Shown here piece after piece: positions 5,300-18,913 of a stretch of 64,000 nucleotides of DNA. Where the stretch lies: the sequence record OK254197.1, one strand, 5' to 3'. Origin of the DNA: Escherichia phage PNJ1902. The notes under the pieces are model-generated. The model worked only from the letters and a program-made list of their open reading frames with translations, did no database searches and had not been told where the DNA came from. Numbering within the stretch: position 1 is the first letter of the stretch; each line of letters starts with the position of its first letter. The position numbers were made by a program, and so were the translations under genes.

Positions 5300-6067
5300 T
5301 TATTCAGCAGCCGCAGCTTTTGCATCCAGTTTAGCACGCTTAGCGGCACCATCATAGTCCTTAGCAACCAGACCACGACGAGACAGCATAGATTTAACAC
5401 CGCGCTCAGACTTACCAGTTTTCTCAGCGATCTCAGCAACAGTCATGTTAACCAGATCCAGACCTTCTAACAGATCTTCACGAGTTTTAGCACTTGAAGT
5501 TTCCTGTACCGGCATAGCAGCGATACGACCTTCACGAAGCAGGCTCAGAGCTTTACCACGGATCTGCTTGATATTACGACCGAAGTGAGCAGCGATAGCT
5601 TCAATAGTAGCACCAGCAACAACCTGATTAACAAAATCAGTTTCTTCATCCGGAGTAAAGGAACGAACAGCGGCAGCTTTTTCGGTTGGCTTAACAGAAG
5701 CGGTCATTTCCAGACTCAGGATCTTACCCTGTACCTGTTTAGCACCGAACTGACCACCAGCTACAGCAGCAGCGATTTCAGCATAGGTATACTGACCAGC
5801 ATGAGCGTTCAGGAAATCAACCAGTTCAGCTTCCTGCTCAGGAGTCCACGGGGATTTCTGTACTTCGTTAGCTTTTTGTACTTCAAAACCTTCTTTACGC
5901 AGTTTAGAGCCAACAGAGCGAGCAGTAACATCTTTGCCAGTTTCAGCAGCCAGTTCAGCAGCGATAGCAGCTACTTGTTCTTGAGAGATTACAGCAACAC
6001 CCAGAGCAGTGGCTTTTGCTTTCAGAGACTCAGTTACACCTTCTACGTTCCAGTTCAGTTTAGACAT
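5300..6067 (-). CDS. Ala/Lys-rich DNA-binding protein (T5 D5-like)
   Basis: 255 aa, repetitive Ala-rich composition; position between ligase and helicase as in T5. Confidence 0.4.
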   Translation of the reverse strand: MSKLNWNVEGVTESLKAKATALGVAVISQEQVAAIAAELAAETGKDVTARSVGSKLRKEGFEVQKANEVQKSPWTPEQEAELVDFLNAHAGQYTYAEIAAAVAGGQFGAKQVQGKILSLEMTASVKPTEKAAAVRSFTPDEETDFVNQVVAGATIEAIAAHFGRNIKQIRGKALSLLREGRIAAMPVQETSSAKTREDLLEGLDLVNMTVAEIAEKTGKSERGVKSMLSRRGLVAKDYDGAAKRAKLDAKAAAAE

Positions 6068-10548: not shown

Positions 10549-13312
10549 CTAGCTCTGCCATTGCTTCATCATGCATATGTTTCTCCTCATCAGTCATAAA
10601 CTTATATGGGATTGGCATACACTCGATTTTACAATAGGTTCTGTACCAGTCTACAATATTCTCCGTGTTCATATCCTTACCAATACCCATCATACCAAGA
10701 TACATTCTCGCATATTTTGGGTTAGCACTCTGACCTGTTTTAAGGAAGAAATCTTTCTTCTTACCTTTCAGAGCTTCTATGAATGGTTTGATAGTGACAT
10801 TTGAACACTTCTTAATATCTTCCCAGAACATCTCGTGCATTTTATGGAAGAATGCCGCTCGATCATTCGGTTTATCTTTGATATATTGTTCAACGTGCTC
10901 AACTGTTACATCTTTAATAGACTCAAGATGATAGTAGCGAACAAGAAGTAGTTTAGCCTCATACGCATCTGCATGGCGTGGAGCACAATAATCAGGAGTT
11001 GAATACAAAATGGCTTTGATTCGCTCTTCCGTATACTCTTTTCCTGCACCTTCGATAGTTCCCCAGCTTTCACTGAAAATATCAATAGTTGCACCCTGAT
11101 CAAGCAAGTAATAACGTAAGGTACTAGTATAGTTTCTAGATTCCAGCTCTCTACGACGTGCGTATAATTGCTGTGCTAACTCCAGCCAACCTTCATCAAT
11201 GTTATATTGTTCAGAACCTGCGGAGAATCCACTCGTAGATTTATCAATAAAATAATAAATGTTCTGAGCGCCACGGTCGCGCCTGATTGCTTGGAAACGC
11301 ATGTTTGGCGCTTGGTTACTGGTTCTAGTAATAACGAATACGTTATCAAAGTAGTTGAAGTCAACGCCACTCGTTACGGATGGACTACATAATAAGCAAT
11401 CAATTTGTTGATCAATTAGCTCATTAGTTGTGTAATCCAGAATACGTCGAATATCTACATCAGACGTAGAATTTGAGTGGATTTCCTTAACTAGGGCACC
11501 TGTATTACGACGTAATGCCATACCCTTCTCATTCAGTTCATCCGGCCCACAGTCAGATACTAGGATAGATTTCTCACCCATCTCTAGAGAAGTCTGAAGT
11601 GCAACCCAAATACTGGATTCATCCGGGAACTCATAAGCATGAGCTTTTGACAGCATCTTACGGTGATGGTTGTAAAATGCAACCGGTTTATCAAAATCAA
11701 TTAGAGAACCGTAGGCTTCAATCGTCTCAGCACTAATATCACCATCAGATAAGATTACAGTTTTAGCTGTCATGAGGATGTCACGTAGAACTTGAATACA
11801 TTCGCGACGTTGTTTAACAACGGGGGCGAATAATAGATCATTCATTACAGCGTCACATTCATCAATAAAAATGGTGTCTATTTGACCAATAAAACTCTTG
11901 AACTTATGCAAAGAGTGAATAGTTGTGGACATACGGTCAATAGCGCCACGCTTAAAATTAAGCATATCTACAGACTTATCATATTGTCCTGCACTAAATT
12001 TCTTAGCATTTGAAGATACCAGCGCTCTAGTATTTGTAACTGCTAAAAAGTTGCCAGGAAGAACACCTGCGTCCAGCCATTTAGTTACTGCCGTAGTTTT
12101 ACCAGTACCAAGACTTGCCTTAACAAATGTTATATGGCCTTTTGGGGGCACAATGTTAATCTTCAGGTATGGAACTTCTGGTGGAGAATCCACTTCTAAT
12201 TTCTTGAGTGGAACACCTTTCAGATTTAATGGAATCTCACGTTTAGAATTATTAACAAACGCTTTGAGAGCCTGCTTGCGACCGTTATTAAAGTAATCTT
12301 GAATATTACGACTATTATCTTTAGTTGCAATATATTCAGATAAAGCGGGTTTAATCTCACGTTCTAGCCATGCGAAATCAACACCATCCTCTAATGCTCT
12401 ATGGTATAGTTTGGGGATAATACGCAAGTACACCCCATCCTCAGCTTCTTCCAATTCGCTGATGGTTTCTTCTACTTTATCAGACGCGATCTTTTTGCCT
12501 TTAATTTGGTCAAGTAAGGAATAGAATTCCTCTTTAAACTCTCCTCTAGTTGTTTCATAATCAACCAGATTATTGGGCAAATTTACCTTCGAACCTTTAA
12601 CATACACCAGACGTGGCTTACTCTCCGCTTTAAACGGATCTACAATACCATCGCTAAATAAAGGGTCGGCAAAATAGTGAAGCTGGACAGATGAATAATA
12701 AGCTAAGTCGGCAATGTCAAAACCGAATTTTTGCTTACTACTATCGTTGATGGATGTAAATAAGAACTTTAGCTGACCCTGAGTTACCTTGACGTTAGAT
12801 TCTAGCATTAAGTGCATTCGGATACCTGGTTTTAGGCCAGCCGAAGATGATGCATGAGCAATAAACCCTGCATCAAGAGGAAACATGTCCTCACTAATAC
12901 TATTCAACATCTTAATAATGTGGCGGGCCATGCCTACAAGATTAAACTTGTCGTACCCACCGGTATCTAGGATACCATCCACGTCCATAGCAATAATATT
13001 GCTGGGGTTGGATACATTAAAGTTACCTTTCTTACGCCGCACGTTATTTTTAGGTGCAAGACATCGACCTCGTACCGCAACGATATGAGGATCAGACGTT
13101 AAACGTCTCATAAGTGGTAACATTTCGGCAAGGCTTTGCGGGTCATGCTCTTCTATTACATCAAATTTGAAGGGCATAGAGGCTGGTTTACCTTCTGGAT
13201 GCTCTTTCGAGAATCGCTTGGCAAAGGTATAATCCTCCGCTTTGATTTCTCGCCAAATACCTGTTGCTAAATCACGAGAAAATCCGGCGTGACCTTGAAG
13301 AATAGAAAACAC
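10523..13312 (-). CDS. Large SF2-type helicase / putative replication-origin-binding protein
   Basis: 929 aa; Walker A GTGKTT, Walker B-like IFIDECD. Confidence 0.6.
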   Translation of the reverse strand: MFSILQGHAGFSRDLATGIWREIKAEDYTFAKRFSKEHPEGKPASMPFKFDVIEEHDPQSLAEMLPLMRRLTSDPHIVAVRGRCLAPKNNVRRKKGNFNVSNPSNIIAMDVDGILDTGGYDKFNLVGMARHIIKMLNSISEDMFPLDAGFIAHASSSAGLKPGIRMHLMLESNVKVTQGQLKFLFTSINDSSKQKFGFDIADLAYYSSVQLHYFADPLFSDGIVDPFKAESKPRLVYVKGSKVNLPNNLVDYETTRGEFKEEFYSLLDQIKGKKIASDKVEETISELEEAEDGVYLRIIPKLYHRALEDGVDFAWLEREIKPALSEYIATKDNSRNIQDYFNNGRKQALKAFVNNSKREIPLNLKGVPLKKLEVDSPPEVPYLKINIVPPKGHITFVKASLGTGKTTAVTKWLDAGVLPGNFLAVTNTRALVSSNAKKFSAGQYDKSVDMLNFKRGAIDRMSTTIHSLHKFKSFIGQIDTIFIDECDAVMNDLLFAPVVKQRRECIQVLRDILMTAKTVILSDGDISAETIEAYGSLIDFDKPVAFYNHHRKMLSKAHAYEFPDESSIWVALQTSLEMGEKSILVSDCGPDELNEKGMALRRNTGALVKEIHSNSTSDVDIRRILDYTTNELIDQQIDCLLCSPSVTSGVDFNYFDNVFVITRTSNQAPNMRFQAIRRDRGAQNIYYFIDKSTSGFSAGSEQYNIDEGWLELAQQLYARRRELESRNYTSTLRYYLLDQGATIDIFSESWGTIEGAGKEYTEERIKAILYSTPDYCAPRHADAYEAKLLLVRYYHLESIKDVTVEHVEQYIKDKPNDRAAFFHKMHEMFWEDIKKCSNVTIKPFIEALKGKKKDFFLKTGQSANPKYARMYLGMMGIGKDMNTENIVDWYRTYCKIECMPIPYKFMTDEEKHMHDEAMAELGARNDSEE

Positions 13313-13810
13313 AACAATACTCCTGTGTTGGTTAATCGAAAATCTTTTCTTTAGGACTATTCAGAAAGAATAGAACAACTATTACTACTGTTTACGTAAA
13401 CATCAATTATCATCAAGCAATATGAATAAGTTATCATATCTCAGTGCTGTGCTCTCTTCGCTCATATACAGAATAGAACCTAGGTCATTGGCCGCTAAGC
13501 CGATTCTATTTGTCCTCACTATCCTATTGGTAGGTGACTACTGTACGTGCCGCCATTCGCTGCTCTTTTCGTTCGCACCCCCATATAAAGCTCTGCCTAT
13601 ATAACGAGCTAAATATGCACGGTTTGGATTTACCTTTCCGAATTCAGGGTACACAGATCACTTAATTGAAGATTAACTAATGCAATATAAACACTAGTAA
13701 TAGTTAAAACAACCCTTAATGGGGCAGCCTAACTGTTCCGTATCGCGGATTGTAAACAAGAAAAATTAGCAAAATCAATTTTTACTAATGTCTCTCAATT
13801 CAATATAAAT

Positions 13811-13839
13811 ATTATATCAAGATTTTGGGCATCCGGCAA
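13811..13839 (-). promoter_or_regulatory. sigma70 promoter
   Basis: RC: TTGCCG-17-TATAAT; fires toward helicase gene across ~480 nt ORF-poor leader. Confidence 0.55.
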
Positions 13840-13933
13840 GTAAAATTTTCCGGATGGTGCTATCAGTGTCTTTGAGCATAGAGAAAACCGAGCCAAAATG
13901 ACTCGGTAATCAGAGTTCAGCTAATAAAAATCA

Positions 13934-14323
13934 TTAGTCATTTAATCCCGGAACATAGATCCCAACACGGCTTAACTGTTCTTTAGCTTCTGCGAGAATA
14001 TCTGGAGTGTACTCCCAAATATCATCTTCCACCTGTAAAAGATGGGGCGAACAACCGTCACCAGGCACACGACATATGGCCAAACCACGTGGATGGAATA
14101 TAGAGAAGTTTAGGGCAACAATTAAACCCATAGCGGACAATTCATTCCAGTCCATCTCCCACTCCCTGGCATATCCAGATAGGAAAACGCCAATGCATGG
14201 ATCATCTATTTGCTGCTCAGGAAAAGTGAAGGAGGCTTGTCTTACCCCCAACCAACGTTGTAGCAGCTTCTCCGCACGTTTCACCAAACTAGGGTCAATC
14301 TGACGCCAATATACTTGTTCCAT
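13934..14323 (-). CDS. Hypothetical protein (paralog of 14333-14761)
   Basis: 129 aa; shares PCIG ... MGLxxALN(F/Y) ... (Y/M)(V/I)PGL motifs with neighbour. Confidence 0.55.
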   Translation of the reverse strand: MEQVYWRQIDPSLVKRAEKLLQRWLGVRQASFTFPEQQIDDPCIGVFLSGYAREWEMDWNELSAMGLIVALNFSIFHPRGLAICRVPGDGCSPHLLQVEDDIWEYTPDILAEAKEQLSRVGIYVPGLND

Positions 14324-14332
14324 TCTGCCTCC

Positions 14333-14761
14333 TTAAGCAGTTAAACCTGGGATCATATACCCGAAACGGCGAAGTTTCTGAATCCCCTCATTTACTTCTT
14401 CCGGTGAGTAAGACCAACCATAACGTTCATTAACCTGAAAACCAGGAGATTCACTAGTTTTATAGTTAACAACGAGGCGATGCTTAACAGGCATAAACAG
14501 CTTATAATTTAACGCAAAAACTAAGCCCATTTCGTCTAACTCTTTCCAGCCGACAATCTCTTCAAGACCCTCCTCTACCTGAACAATTAAACCAATACAG
14601 GGAGCCTCATCAATATCATCTTTAAAAGCAAAGGAGATTTCGTTATTCTCACACCATATTTTCAAGGAATTAATAGCCTCATTATACAGGCTAGAGGGGA
14701 GAGTACGCCAAAAGTTAACTAAAATTGGGTTAACTTCTTTAGAGAAGACATTATTGAACAT
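14333..14761 (-). CDS. Hypothetical protein (paralog of 13934-14323)
   Basis: 142 aa; same motif set as neighbour. Confidence 0.55.
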   Translation of the reverse strand: MFNNVFSKEVNPILVNFWRTLPSSLYNEAINSLKIWCENNEISFAFKDDIDEAPCIGLIVQVEEGLEEIVGWKELDEMGLVFALNYKLFMPVKHRLVVNYKTSESPGFQVNERYGWSYSPEEVNEGIQKLRRFGYMIPGLTA

Positions 14762-14763
14762 AT

Positions 14764-15270
14764 TTACACCTTAAATTGTTGTAAGGATTTACACATTTCA
14801 AGATCTGGGCTAAATTCTAGCATATAGCTAACAGCTTTTAAATCTTGAAGATTTATCCCAGTCCTACCGTTGACTATAACCGTTGGATACTGATACATCA
14901 TAGCACCCGCATCATCAAGCACACACCAATGTTTGAGCTTATGATTTTCAACAAAGCGAAGAACAGAATTACCCCTAGATAATCCACCCCCAGTAAAATC
15001 CGTTGTACCAAGAAAACGATCGATAAGACCTAATCTGGTCATAATCTGAACGTTCTCCATTTCATTTCTGACAGAAAACCAAGATGATACTCCAACAATC
15101 ATTATCGGAGAAGGACGAATAAAGTCCTGAAAAGCCTTGAGAAGCGGTTTGAAAACCCAATCACTTCCAAAGAAAATCTTTTCATCATCAGGTGCATGAT
15201 GGTGGGAGATGCTCGAATTGAGCACCCCATCAATATCTAGAAAAATAATTGGAGTATTACTTATTTCCAT
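14764..15270 (-). CDS. HAD-superfamily phosphatase-like protein
   Basis: 168 aa; N-terminal FLDIDGVL (DxDG motif I) and VLDDAG (motif IV-like). Confidence 0.5.
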   Translation of the reverse strand: MEISNTPIIFLDIDGVLNSSISHHHAPDDEKIFFGSDWVFKPLLKAFQDFIRPSPIMIVGVSSWFSVRNEMENVQIMTRLGLIDRFLGTTDFTGGGLSRGNSVLRFVENHKLKHWCVLDDAGAMMYQYPTVIVNGRTGINLQDLKAVSYMLEFSPDLEMCKSLQQFKV

Positions 15271-15466
15271 TTTTGTTCCTTTCTAAGAACGTATCATACT
15301 CAACCGTATCAACATATATAACACCATAGTCATCGGATTTATAGTCCATTTCCCACAGCTCACAGCGATAGCACCAACTACCATCCGCCCACACAAATAT
15401 ATCATCGGGATGTGTATACACAGGTTTAACTATGGACATATCTGTTTCCCTTGCTTCTCGACACAT
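15257..15466 (-). CDS. Hypothetical protein
   Basis: 69 aa ORF. Confidence 0.4.
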   Translation of the reverse strand: MCREARETDMSIVKPVYTHPDDIFVWADGSWCYRCELWEMDYKSDDYGVIYVDTVEYDTFLERNKNGNK

Positions 15467-16262
15467 AAGGTCTACCCTCTAAATGAGCTTCTACACGAGC
15501 AATAAAATTAGGGTCACTAAAAGCATCTACCGCACCTTTACTCCAGTAGGGGATACCACGTTCTTCTAGCTGGTACATCTCACTACGAGTCATACCTTGA
15601 TAGCCCGGTTCCGCCGCTAGGGCACTATCATAGTAGTTAACAACCATAAGTTTCGCAGCAGTCAAATTAAGAACAGGAAATAATTCCCAGTAGAAGTTAA
15701 TTACTTGGTTAGAGCAACCAACCACAATGATCATATCTTGACTGGTAATACCATCAAAAACATTATACATTTCTGCGTATGCAGGAGCATGCTCCCCAAA
15801 GAAGATTACATTAGGTTTAACCCATTTATAATCATCTGGGTCAATAGAATTGTATCCTACATCAATAATCCGTTTATTGCTACTATTGTAGCTATCAGCT
15901 ACAACAACCTCTTTTAAATATCCGTGAATGTGCAGAATGTCACTATGTGGAACGCCAGCACGCTCAATAAGGTCATCAACGTTGGTAGTCAAGTTTACTA
16001 CTTGACCTGGATATTGTTTATACCATTCACCAATACGCAAATGCGCAAGATTGGGTTCAACAGTTTTTAGCTCTTCACGACGCTTGTTGTAAAACATATG
16101 GGTTTTATGGTAAAAATTACCACGAAAGGCATGAATATTACATACTTCTTCTAGGTCATAATCATCCCACAGTGCTTTACCACTAGCAGTATCAGTACGA
16201 AAAGCTCGTACACCACTTTCAACACTCAAACCTGCACCGCTAATAATAATTAATCTACGCAT
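15426..16262 (-). CDS. Sir2 (sirtuin)-family protein, apparently lacking Zn-binding cysteines
   Basis: 278 aa; GAGLSVESGVRAFR (sirtuin GAGISxxSGIPxFR), TNVDDL, catalytic-type HG; no CxxC pairs. Confidence 0.6.
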   Translation of the reverse strand: MRRLIIISGAGLSVESGVRAFRTDTASGKALWDDYDLEEVCNIHAFRGNFYHKTHMFYNKRREELKTVEPNLAHLRIGEWYKQYPGQVVNLTTNVDDLIERAGVPHSDILHIHGYLKEVVVADSYNSSNKRIIDVGYNSIDPDDYKWVKPNVIFFGEHAPAYAEMYNVFDGITSQDMIIVVGCSNQVINFYWELFPVLNLTAAKLMVVNYYDSALAAEPGYQGMTRSEMYQLEERGIPYWSKGAVDAFSDPNFIARVEAHLEGRPYVSRSKGNRYVHS

Positions 16263-17038: not shown

Positions 17039-18913
17039 TTATTTAGCTCGAATATCCTGATGTTTCACCCTGCCCATCACCTCGTGCTGTTTGCCGGGGT
17101 TAAATGGACGAGCACCCGGATTTCCAAGATACCCACAAACTCGACGAGTTACTTCAAGAGTTTCGGGGTCATGATTACCACAGATAGGGCACTTAAATCC
17201 ATCTTCGGATGCTATTGTTTCACCTAAGAATCCACATTTACCACAAGAATCCACTGGGGTATTAATACCGAAATAATGAACCTTACTAGCAGCATAATTA
17301 ATAACCCATTCCAGTGCATCTGGGAATCGTTTCATATCCGGTAGTTCTACATAGGAAATGCACCCACCAGAAGCAATAGGAGTAAAGTTAGATTCATAAT
17401 CAAATTTCACATTGGGAGCAACTTTACGTTCTACATCAAGGTGGTGCGAGTTAGTGTAGTATCCTTTGGACAGAATATCTTCATGCTCTGGGAAATATTC
17501 ACGGTCTAGACGACAAAAACGGTCACATAGGGATTCTGATGGTGTAGCATACAGGCTATAACCTAATTTAGTTTCTTCCTTCTTCTGATCGACTCTATCC
17601 CGCATGTATTGCAATACACGCTGAACAAACTTGATGCAGGTCTCGGACATTGTGTCTACCTCTTTGCCAAACATGAACTGTAGCATTTCATGGCAACCAA
17701 TATACCCTAGAGATACAGAAGCACGGTTATAGAAATGATCGAATACATATTCATCAGGCCCCAAGCGTAACCCAAAGGCTCCTGACATATAGAGGATAGG
17801 TGCAGCTTTAGCTTGAATGTATTTTAAGCGATCAACTCTCCATTCCAACGCTTTTAATGCTGTATCCACACGTAGCTCAAGCAAATCAAAGAATAGATCA
17901 ATATTTCCTTCAGCTTCGATAGCAATTCTAGGCAAGTTTACAGAAACAACACCTAAGTTATTACGACCGGCAGTTTCACCATCTTCTGTAGCAGCTAGGA
18001 ATGAACGGCAGCCCATAGAAACTTTGTAGTCTCCAGTAACCTCTACAACCTTGTCATAGCTGATATAATCTGGATACATACGTTCAGCAGTACATTTCAT
18101 AGCTAACTTCTTGATGTCATAATTAACATCTCCTGGTTTCATATTTACTCCATCACGAAGTACAAATACCAGTTTCGGGAAGATAGCTGTACGTTTATTG
18201 ATACCTAAACCATCCATGCGTACTTTCAGTATTGCTTTCTGTACTAGACGTGCTTCCCAAGAAGTTCCTAGACCAAAACCAAAGGTAATAAATGGACTCT
18301 GACCATTAGAGTTGAACATGGTATTGATTTCATATTCTAAACCCTGACAAGCGTCATAGACTTCTTTTTCAGTCATCTCCGTAGCCATTACGGATGCTTT
18401 GGCTTCATCCTTAGTCCAACGTTTTGCAAACGCATGATTTTTATCATAGGATTTACGTACATAAGGGGCTAATACTTCATCAAGGCGATCTACAGAAGTA
18501 CCACCATACTGATGGGAGCTAACCTGAGTGATAATCTGAGCAGTAATAGCCGCCGCAGTAGTGATAGAGTTTGGAGTGCTAATTTCAGCATTACCAACCT
18601 TCATACCATTCTTCAACATATCTTCCAGAGCTACCAGACAACAGTTAGTCATACCTAATGCAGCATAATCAGCATCATGGAAATGAATATCCCCAATCAT
18701 ATGAGCATTTCGAATCTGAATTGGCATTTCTTCTAGAATCAGATACTTACTCAATTCACCTGCAAGCATATCCCTTTGTGTAGGGAAACGTTCTGAGGGT
18801 TTATTAGCATTATTAAACAGCAGCTCTTCATCTGCTGACCCTTCGATAATCTCTTTGCAGTTTCTAATTAACGCCTGCATTTCTTTATACTTTAATTCTT
18901 CATTGCGATTCAT
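17039..18913 (-). CDS. nrdD: Anaerobic ribonucleoside-triphosphate reductase (class III)
   Basis: 624 aa; C-terminal glycyl-radical motif RVCGYLG and Zn-ribbon CGKCGF...CPICG. Confidence 0.8.
   Translation of the reverse strand: MNRNEELKYKEMQALIRNCKEIIEGSADEELLFNNANKPSERFPTQRDMLAGELSKYLILEEMPIQIRNAHMIGDIHFHDADYAALGMTNCCLVALEDMLKNGMKVGNAEISTPNSITTAAAITAQIITQVSSHQYGGTSVDRLDEVLAPYVRKSYDKNHAFAKRWTKDEAKASVMATEMTEKEVYDACQGLEYEINTMFNSNGQSPFITFGFGLGTSWEARLVQKAILKVRMDGLGINKRTAIFPKLVFVLRDGVNMKPGDVNYDIKKLAMKCTAERMYPDYISYDKVVEVTGDYKVSMGCRSFLAATEDGETAGRNNLGVVSVNLPRIAIEAEGNIDLFFDLLELRVDTALKALEWRVDRLKYIQAKAAPILYMSGAFGLRLGPDEYVFDHFYNRASVSLGYIGCHEMLQFMFGKEVDTMSETCIKFVQRVLQYMRDRVDQKKEETKLGYSLYATPSESLCDRFCRLDREYFPEHEDILSKGYYTNSHHLDVERKVAPNVKFDYESNFTPIASGGCISYVELPDMKRFPDALEWVINYAASKVHYFGINTPVDSCGKCGFLGETIASEDGFKCPICGNHDPETLEVTRRVCGYLGNPGARPFNPGKQHEVMGRVKHQDIRAK

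Follow-up and report, generated by a model that had tools for sequence, protein, structure and literature searches.

Paralogues A and B of Escherichia phage PNJ1902, orthologues of T5.107 and T5.106, form an old tandem pair of DUF7415 proteins at the end of an early operon

The window analysed here, a stretch of 64,000 nucleotides (nt) from Escherichia phage PNJ1902 (sequence record OK254197.1), carries two adjacent minus-strand genes, named A and B, that are, with near certainty on the evidence of their sequences, ancient tandem paralogues and the orthologues of T5.107 and T5.106 of phage T5, respectively. T5 is a classic model phage, most of whose early genes are without an assigned function, and both T5.106 (YP_006934) and T5.107 (YP_006935) are annotated as 'hypothetical protein'. 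The two genes belong to the DUF7415 family and follow, in the same operon, the genes for the anaerobic ribonucleotide reductase NrdD, a Sir2-family protein (Sir2) and a HAD_SAK_2 phosphatase-like protein (HAD). The favoured reading, to which a probability of about 40% is assigned, is that A and B constitute an early, non-enzymatic protein-binding pair that would act on the replication machinery or on the supply of deoxynucleoside triphosphates (dNTPs). The pair is laid out as follows.

14333-14761, minus strand: paralogue B, an open reading frame (ORF) of 142 amino acids (aa), orthologue of T5.106, a two-lobed DUF7415 protein whose C-lobe is without HPxGLA (FMPVKHR in its place)
14324-14332, minus strand: spacer between B and A, 9 nt, on the coding strand GGAGGCAGA, with the Shine-Dalgarno element of A inside, as read from the sequence
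13934-14323, minus strand: paralogue A, an ORF of 129 aa, orthologue of T5.107, with the canonical C-terminal module kept (DWNELSAMGLIVALNFSIFHPRGLA...GCSP...WEY)

The original prediction took these genes, on account of motifs shared in the same order, for an old tandem duplication that selection has retained, and suggested a host-range, immunity or anti-defence role; the first part stands, and the second is left without specific support. Specifically, all four motifs occur in both proteins and in the same order (DPCIGV/APCIGL, MGLIVALN/MGLVFALN, FHP/FMP, and VPGL/IPGL), and the pairwise alignment of A and B is significant, with 39/124 identities (31%), one gap and E=3e-19 by BLASTP. The Smith-Waterman score of 153 compares with 27.4 +/- 4.5 for 2000 shuffles, corresponding to z=27.6. 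Moreover, both proteins match the Pfam family PF24187 (DUF7415), A with 108.5 bits and B with 123.5 bits at a gathering cut-off of 27 bits, and both fall into phrog_2502 (A over residues 1-129 with E=9e-61, B over residues 11-142 with E=2e-62). At the amino acid level, B is 91% identical to T5.106 and A is 92% identical to T5.107. The paralogy was already implicit in public databases, as the two proteins share the same Pfam, PHROG and pVOG family; hence, the family and the relationship are already catalogued, A and B are not new as genes, and nothing is overturned. A full-text literature search for DUF7415, PF24187, phrog_2502 and T5.106/T5.107 found no paper with the family in its main text, and the phiR2-01 proteomics paper makes no mention of the homologue in its own. 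T5-like phages are outside the scope of two other preprints on phage gene essentiality. Word-index protein searches returned only close T5-like relatives with no informative names, and related-locus searches seeded with the single distant members P0049 and P0061 gave no matches. At the nucleotide level, the segment 13700-15300 of the window matches 525 phage records, the top one being Salmonella phage HMD-P4 (Tequintavirus) at 97.7% identity, which identifies the source of the window as a T5-like phage.

The age of the duplication follows from the separation of A-type and B-type copies into distinct clades. Neighbour-joining unites the B-type copies, among them gp118 of Klebsiella phage Sugarland, in a clade with 98% bootstrap, and the A-type copies group elsewhere; the placement of gp118 inside the B clade indicates that the duplication is older than the split between Markadamsvirinae and Sugarlandvirus. 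Sugarland (Sugarlandvirus) has a tandem pair of its own, gp118 (B-type) and gp117 (A-type), with no HAD gene, and single copies are found in Pectobacterium phage My1 (A-type) and in Serratia phage Slocum, in which the gene comes right after Sir2 at a locus with neither nrdD nor HAD. A survey of copy number in T5-like phages supports the retention of both genes. Specifically, tblastn with the C-terminal half of A finds 1322 places in 886 phage records; among the matches listed, all records at 74% identity or more have 2 places, and the totals are consistent with both copies in nearly all of the ~437 Markadamsvirinae records. The predicted retention under selection also holds, because the Nei-Gojobori ratio of nonsynonymous to synonymous substitution rates (dN/dS) is far below 1 for both copies (0.06-0.12 for B, 0.10-0.33 for A) and similar to that of the operon neighbours (0.04-0.09 for HAD, 0.07-0.20 for Sir2); the two copies are thus evidently maintained by purifying selection. 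In Salmonella phage GSW6, identity to the window is 97% for Sir2, 76% for B and only 64% for A, a contrast that points to recombination within the operon between Tequintavirus-type and Epseptimavirus-type alleles.

Sequence comparison further indicates that only the C-terminal lobe of ~55 aa is the widespread DUF7415 module, which is found across P2-, T4- and T5-like phages. When 1.84 billion cluster representatives are searched exhaustively with the family profile, 158 proteins score at E<=1e-3, of which ~20 are two-lobed and more than 110 match only the profile positions ~55-112, which correspond to this lobe; a Pfam scan of the relatives assigns 80/80 to DUF7415. The single-module matches are either stand-alone proteins of 60-110 aa or N- or C-terminal domains of larger proteins, with fusion partners that include dATP/dGTP pyrophosphohydrolase (twice), DUF3850/ASCH (twice), thymidylate kinase, Cox, PGDYG, DUF551 and a ClpX-type zinc finger. 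A profile built from the single-domain sequences aligns with the C-terminal halves of the T5 family at an hhalign probability of 99.8% (E=1e-28). The stand-alone proteins (PF24187, PHROG 2502 and 3954; e.g., Klebsiella phage JD18 gp054 and the product of a gene next to gpA in a P2-like prophage) have the ~55-aa module and its motif in common with the T5-type proteins, which add the N-lobe, a C-terminal helix ending in (I/V)PGL and the tandem pairing, and whose copy B is without HPxGLA. The search also returned giant proteins of 718-4520 aa that hit the profile positions ~85-125 in many repeated stretches, among them P0054, which consists of perfect tandem copies of a ~53-aa unit; as relatives, these proteins were set aside as likely repetitive or low-complexity artefacts.

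The module has a helix-helix-beta-hairpin outline, the motif DWNxxSxxGLIxxINxEILHPxGLAxxRDPxTGxSxGxLV..DGxWEY and, over the single-domain sequences, the consensus IDWNxxSxLGLIxRINxEILHPLGLAxxRxPETGxSxGxLV..DGxWEY, in which the near-invariant residues are W..(S)..GL..(I/L)N...(L)HPxGLA..(R)...G.S, and the motif is conserved in phages of very different hosts (Pseudomonas, Shewanella, Klebsiella, Proteus). Copy A matches the canonical module (DWNELSAMGLIVALNFSIFHPRGLA..DGCSP, including FHPRGLA; in general form DWNELS..GL..LN..FHPxGLA..G.SP), whereas copy B does so only partly, keeping the W, GL, LN and P positions with M replacing H and KHR replacing GLA. HPxGLA is lost throughout the B clade, being FMPVKHR in the B protein of the window and LLRESYI in Sugarland gp118, but the single-copy protein of Slocum retains it; therefore, the loss came after the duplication.

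The AlphaFold2 (AF2) model of B has a mean predicted local distance difference test score (pLDDT) of 87.9 and a predicted template modelling score (pTM) of 0.82. Its predicted secondary structure (b, strand; a, helix, by residue) comprises b14-16, a23-36, b42-46 and b55-62, followed by b66-70, a72-77, a80-92, b94-99, b104-110 and a120-132; the order of elements, summarised as b-a-a-b-b and then b-a-a-b-b-a, is alike in the two lobes, and the N-lobe is predicted to pack against the C-lobe in cis in the T5-type proteins. Structure searches return no nuclease or tail-tube fold match, and a BFVD search returns DUF7415 proteins only; as modelled, the DUF7415 module is without a counterpart among solved structures. 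The isoelectric point (pI) is 4.65 for A and 4.75 for B, ranges from 4.2 to 4.9 in 19 other two-lobed members and lies below 6 in 36/46 stand-alone members, and this acidity makes the binding of nucleic acids less likely. A non-enzymatic binding module is considered most likely because ~55 aa offer little space for an active site, the members checked are acidic and the conserved positions (W, L, I, G, P, N, S) belong mostly to the hydrophobic core or to turns. T7 Ocr, T7 Gp1.2 and T4 Pin are likewise small and acidic, are made early in infection and work by binding a protein of the host or the phage. A and B resemble them in size, acidity, early expression and the lack of enzymatic motifs, with no similarity in sequence or structure, so that 'works like' may be said by analogy only.

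Gene context provides the second line of evidence for the favoured reading. A and B are co-transcribed as the final two genes of the early nrdD-Sir2-HAD operon, the further features of which, together with those of the non-coding gap behind it, are the following.

17039-18913, minus strand: NrdD, anaerobic ribonucleotide reductase, 624 aa, with the RRVCGYLG glycyl-radical motif
15426-16262, minus strand: Sir2-family protein, T5.102 orthologue, Pfam SIR2 with E=8e-25, in the same operon
15257-15466, minus strand: small ORF of phrog_5116, single copy in the window
14764-15270, minus strand: HAD_SAK_2 phosphatase-like protein, T5.105 orthologue, Pfam PF18143 with E=2e-20, in the same operon, upstream of B
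13907-13887, minus strand: intrinsic terminator from a terminator scan, with a 9-bp stem and then the tail TTTCTCT, closing the nrdD-Sir2-HAD-B-A operon
13313-13933: non-coding gap of ~620 bp between A and the gene for the origin-binding helicase
13839-13811, minus strand: promoter-like site, TTGCCG-17-TATAAT with TG, inside the ~620-bp gap
13377-13394 and 13688-13705: inverted repeat of 18 nt, 94% complementary, arms 293 nt apart, inside the ~620-bp gap

The HAD stop codon is 2 nt from the start of B, and the stop of B is 9 nt from the start of A; beyond the ~620-bp gap lies the gene for a 929-aa origin-binding helicase, the T5.108 orthologue. In T5, the early operon runs in the order nrdD (T5.099), two small ORFs, Sir2 (T5.102), the phrog_5116 ORF(s), HAD_SAK_2 (T5.105), T5.106 and T5.107, and the T5 pair shares with that of the window its order, spacing, operon, terminator and downstream origin-binding gene. 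There is no material difference between the two, and the phrog_5116 ORF is present in two copies in T5 and in one in the window. A rho-independent terminator is annotated at the matching place in T5, and likewise in Sugarland and Slocum. Across the Demerecviridae, for which seven loci were inspected, the DUF7415 gene or pair closes the operon in every locus, followed by the terminator and then by the origin-binding gene, and the position of the ~620-bp gap is conserved in each of them.

Outside this family, the module recurs beside genes of similar classes. Two T4-like genera, Jiaodavirus (JD18) and Bragavirus (PM2), have a single-domain gene directly between nrdD and nrdG, and in Slopekvirus and Pseudotevenvirus, the DUF7415 gene is the second one downstream of a gene for a NUDIX hydrolase. 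Moreover, a homologue of the P2 gpA replication initiator lies within 300 nt in 30/80 IMG/VR loci with a stand-alone module. The association of the module with replication and nucleotide-supply genes, both as neighbours and as fusion partners, is therefore recurrent, not exclusive. A related case is P2 Orf91 (5317-5646 of the examined P2 stretch), a DUF3850/ASCH protein encoded just after replication gene A, whose position beside a replication-initiator gene parallels that of T5.107 before T5.108. In Orf91-type relatives such as P0077, DUF3850 is fused to DUF7415, whereas the T5 proteins are without an ASCH domain; these fusions explain the remark in the T5 record that T5.106 is 'similar to ORF91'. 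P2 Orf91 itself gives no match to the DUF7415 profile, and its C-terminal tail HRILGEILPLTVKLA resembles, by eye only, a decayed remnant of the module (RINHEILHPLGLA).

Fitness data from a genome-wide knock-down screen bear on the same point. In the CRISPRi-ART supplement (Adler et al., Nat Microbiol 2025, PMC11879866), T5.107 is among 17 'Fit' T5 genes, with a mean fitness of -2.90 and p=0.0215, and is described as 'of entirely unknown function', while T5.106 is 'Not Fit' (-3.28, p=0.17), as are Sir2 and HAD (PMC11879866). The asymmetry in fitness matches that in sequence, as the copy that scores is the canonical A. Since knock-down of T5.107 costs T5 fitness on laboratory E. coli, the result points to a core role and not to a host-specific one.

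Taken with the module's recurrence beside replication and nucleotide-supply genes, for which reason a role in replication or dNTP supply is proposed, these data suggest the following mechanism. The DUF7415 module would serve as a non-enzymatic protein-binding or oligomerisation module; of the two copies, A would probably be the active one, with B either diverged into a partner or sub-functionalised, and they may assemble into an A/B heteromer. The pair would act early in infection as an accessory factor on a replication or dNTP-supply component of either the phage or the host. T5.106/T5.107 thus represent a well-defined and tractable target, given that the canonical copy of the ancient pair is T5.107, that the module occurs in three major phage groups, is without a match among solved structures and is independent of Sir2 and HAD, and that T5.107 is one of a handful of function-unknown genes flagged as fitness-relevant by a genome-wide knock-down screen.

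A bolder version, which is decidedly doubtful in its entirety, holds that DUF7415 would be a previously unrecognised fold and a mobile protein-binding module, that an asymmetric A/B complex with one canonical site would have arisen from a homo-oligomer through two duplications, first intragenic and then tandem, and that T5.107 would be a core early factor targeting a conserved replication or dNTP-supply component. The intragenic step stems from the scoring of the separate half-proteins with the 53-position Pfam DUF7415 model, in which the N-halves reach 59 and 71 bits and the C-halves 52 and 53 bits, all above threshold; together with the AF2 topology of B, this suggests that each gene is itself internally duplicated.

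Several points weigh against the favoured reading and its extension. The binding partner, the A/B heteromer and the replication or nucleotide role all rest on neighbourhood and fusions, which are weak evidence in mosaic phage genomes, and the nrdD link in the T4-like phages may derive from a hyperplastic region or from a single inherited event. In 20 of the 80 IMG/VR loci, the module belongs to the late operon of a P2-like prophage and lies between gpL and gpX, where accessory genes are typically found, and another 21 show it in other contexts. The fitness effect of T5.107 is marginal, and the T5 screen is insensitive and missed many genes that would be expected to matter, such as T5.108, which is 'Not Fit' (PMC11879866). 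Regarding the internal repeat, the scores of both halves with the Pfam model may only mirror the construction of its seed alignment. Independent sequence comparisons gave no confirmation: Smith-Waterman alignment of N-half and C-half gives z below 1.1; with a hidden Markov model (HMM) of the stand-alone domain, 29 N-halves reach no more than 2 bits, which is the level of shuffled sequences; when a broad profile of N-halves is aligned with the stand-alone profile by hhalign, the alignment is in register but with only P=0.002 and 14% probability; and hhalign of the T5-family N-half with the C-half finds a weak, out-of-register match of the N-terminal helix to the C-terminal helix. The N-lobe as a degenerate second copy of the module is hence plausible but unproven.

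The main rival is close to the functional part of the original prediction and proposes that A and B are anti-defence or host-takeover inhibitors that would bind and neutralise a defence or housekeeping protein of the host, with the duplication providing two specificities. It is somewhat doubtful, and evidence can be cited on its side: the two proteins are small, acidic and early-expressed; the stand-alone relatives, often beside an orphan DNA methyltransferase, occur in accessory slots of P2-like prophages, either in the gpL-gpX interval or where the early operon ends; a D12-type DNA methyltransferase lies within 300 nt in 16/80 IMG/VR loci; and A exists in divergent allelic types within a mosaic operon. 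Conversely, PADLOC finds no family at E<=0.1 for A, B or any of three neighbour proteins, although its library covers defence and not anti-defence proteins, and there is no NCBIfam match. The dN/dS values well under 1 give no hint of an arms race, nearly all Markadamsvirinae have the pair, which resides in an early nucleotide-metabolism operon next to the gene for the origin-binding helicase, and conservation of the motif over phages of such different hosts, as well as the cost of T5.107 knock-down on laboratory E. coli, fits a core function better than a host-specific one.

The recurrence of nrdD beside the module raises another possibility, that A and B are an accessory factor of NrdD, involved in its activation, protection or assembly, which is clearly unlikely. 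The pair shares its operon with nrdD in the T5-like phages, the single-domain gene in the two T4-like genera overlaps or abuts nrdD, and no nrdG is found among the neighbours of nrdD in the window, where three small ORFs without a Pfam match lie between nrdD and Sir2. Nevertheless, nrdD is missing from the DUF7415 locus of Slocum, the module of P2-like prophages is not accompanied by an nrd gene, and no glycyl-radical or Fe-S motif occurs in the sequence. In addition, if the CRISPRi-ART screen was aerobic, as is assumed, NrdD would be dispensable, and yet T5.107 scores as 'Fit'.

Even less probable, and largely refuted, is that A and B are dedicated partners or regulators of Sir2 and HAD_SAK_2 in an NAD/ADP-ribose or RNA-repair module. 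Sir2 does lie directly upstream of the DUF7415 gene in all intact Demerecviridae loci examined, with the Sir2 stop overlapping the DUF7415 start in Slocum, but a natural deletion runs counter to this reading. Specifically, in Escherichia phage DT57C (NC_027356; 3494-4599 of the examined stretch), a C-terminal piece of Sir2 is fused to the C-terminal end of HAD in a 90-aa chimera, while B and A are intact, 89% and 91% identical to the proteins of the window. Moreover, rV5-like and phAPEC8-like phages have the same type of Sir2 (52-60% identity) with no DUF7415 in its flanks, no Sir2 is near the module in the T4-like and P2-like carriers, and HAD is absent from Sugarland and Slocum. The DT57C deletion and the Sir2 phages lacking DUF7415 thus indicate that Sir2 and HAD are not obligate partners of A and B. 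A partial HAD match in SelmaRatti resembles the DT57C arrangement. A linkage of HAD and DUF7415 in T4-like phages was also considered, as the T5 record likens T5.105 and T5.107 to two nearby Aeh1 ORFs, and was rejected, since the genes are far apart in Proteus phage PM2.

Lastly, the product names of some GenBank records, 'Phage exonuclease (ACLAME 70)', 'tail tube protein' and 'tail protein', have next to no chance of being right. The names themselves are all that speaks for them, and they are three incompatible names for the same protein across records; the exonuclease label finds no nuclease family in Pfam, NCBIfam or PHROGs and no nuclease fold match, and the tail and tail-tube labels find no structural PHROG or Pfam match, for a gene of an early nrdD-Sir2 operon far from the structural module.

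Three side observations concern the surroundings of the pair. An Rfam scan of 13200-15000 finds no RNA family. The T5.105 orthologue is HAD_SAK_2 by Pfam but is named 'Sir2 (NAD-dependent deacetylase)' in the T5 RefSeq record, in many GenBank records and in the label of phrog_18062, and the 'Sir2' name looks like a propagated annotation error. The phrog_5116 ORF is single in the window and in T5_ev212 and forms a tandem pair in T5 (T5.103, T5.104) and in phage bastian, so that its copy number is a second, more recent polymorphism within the same operon as A and B.

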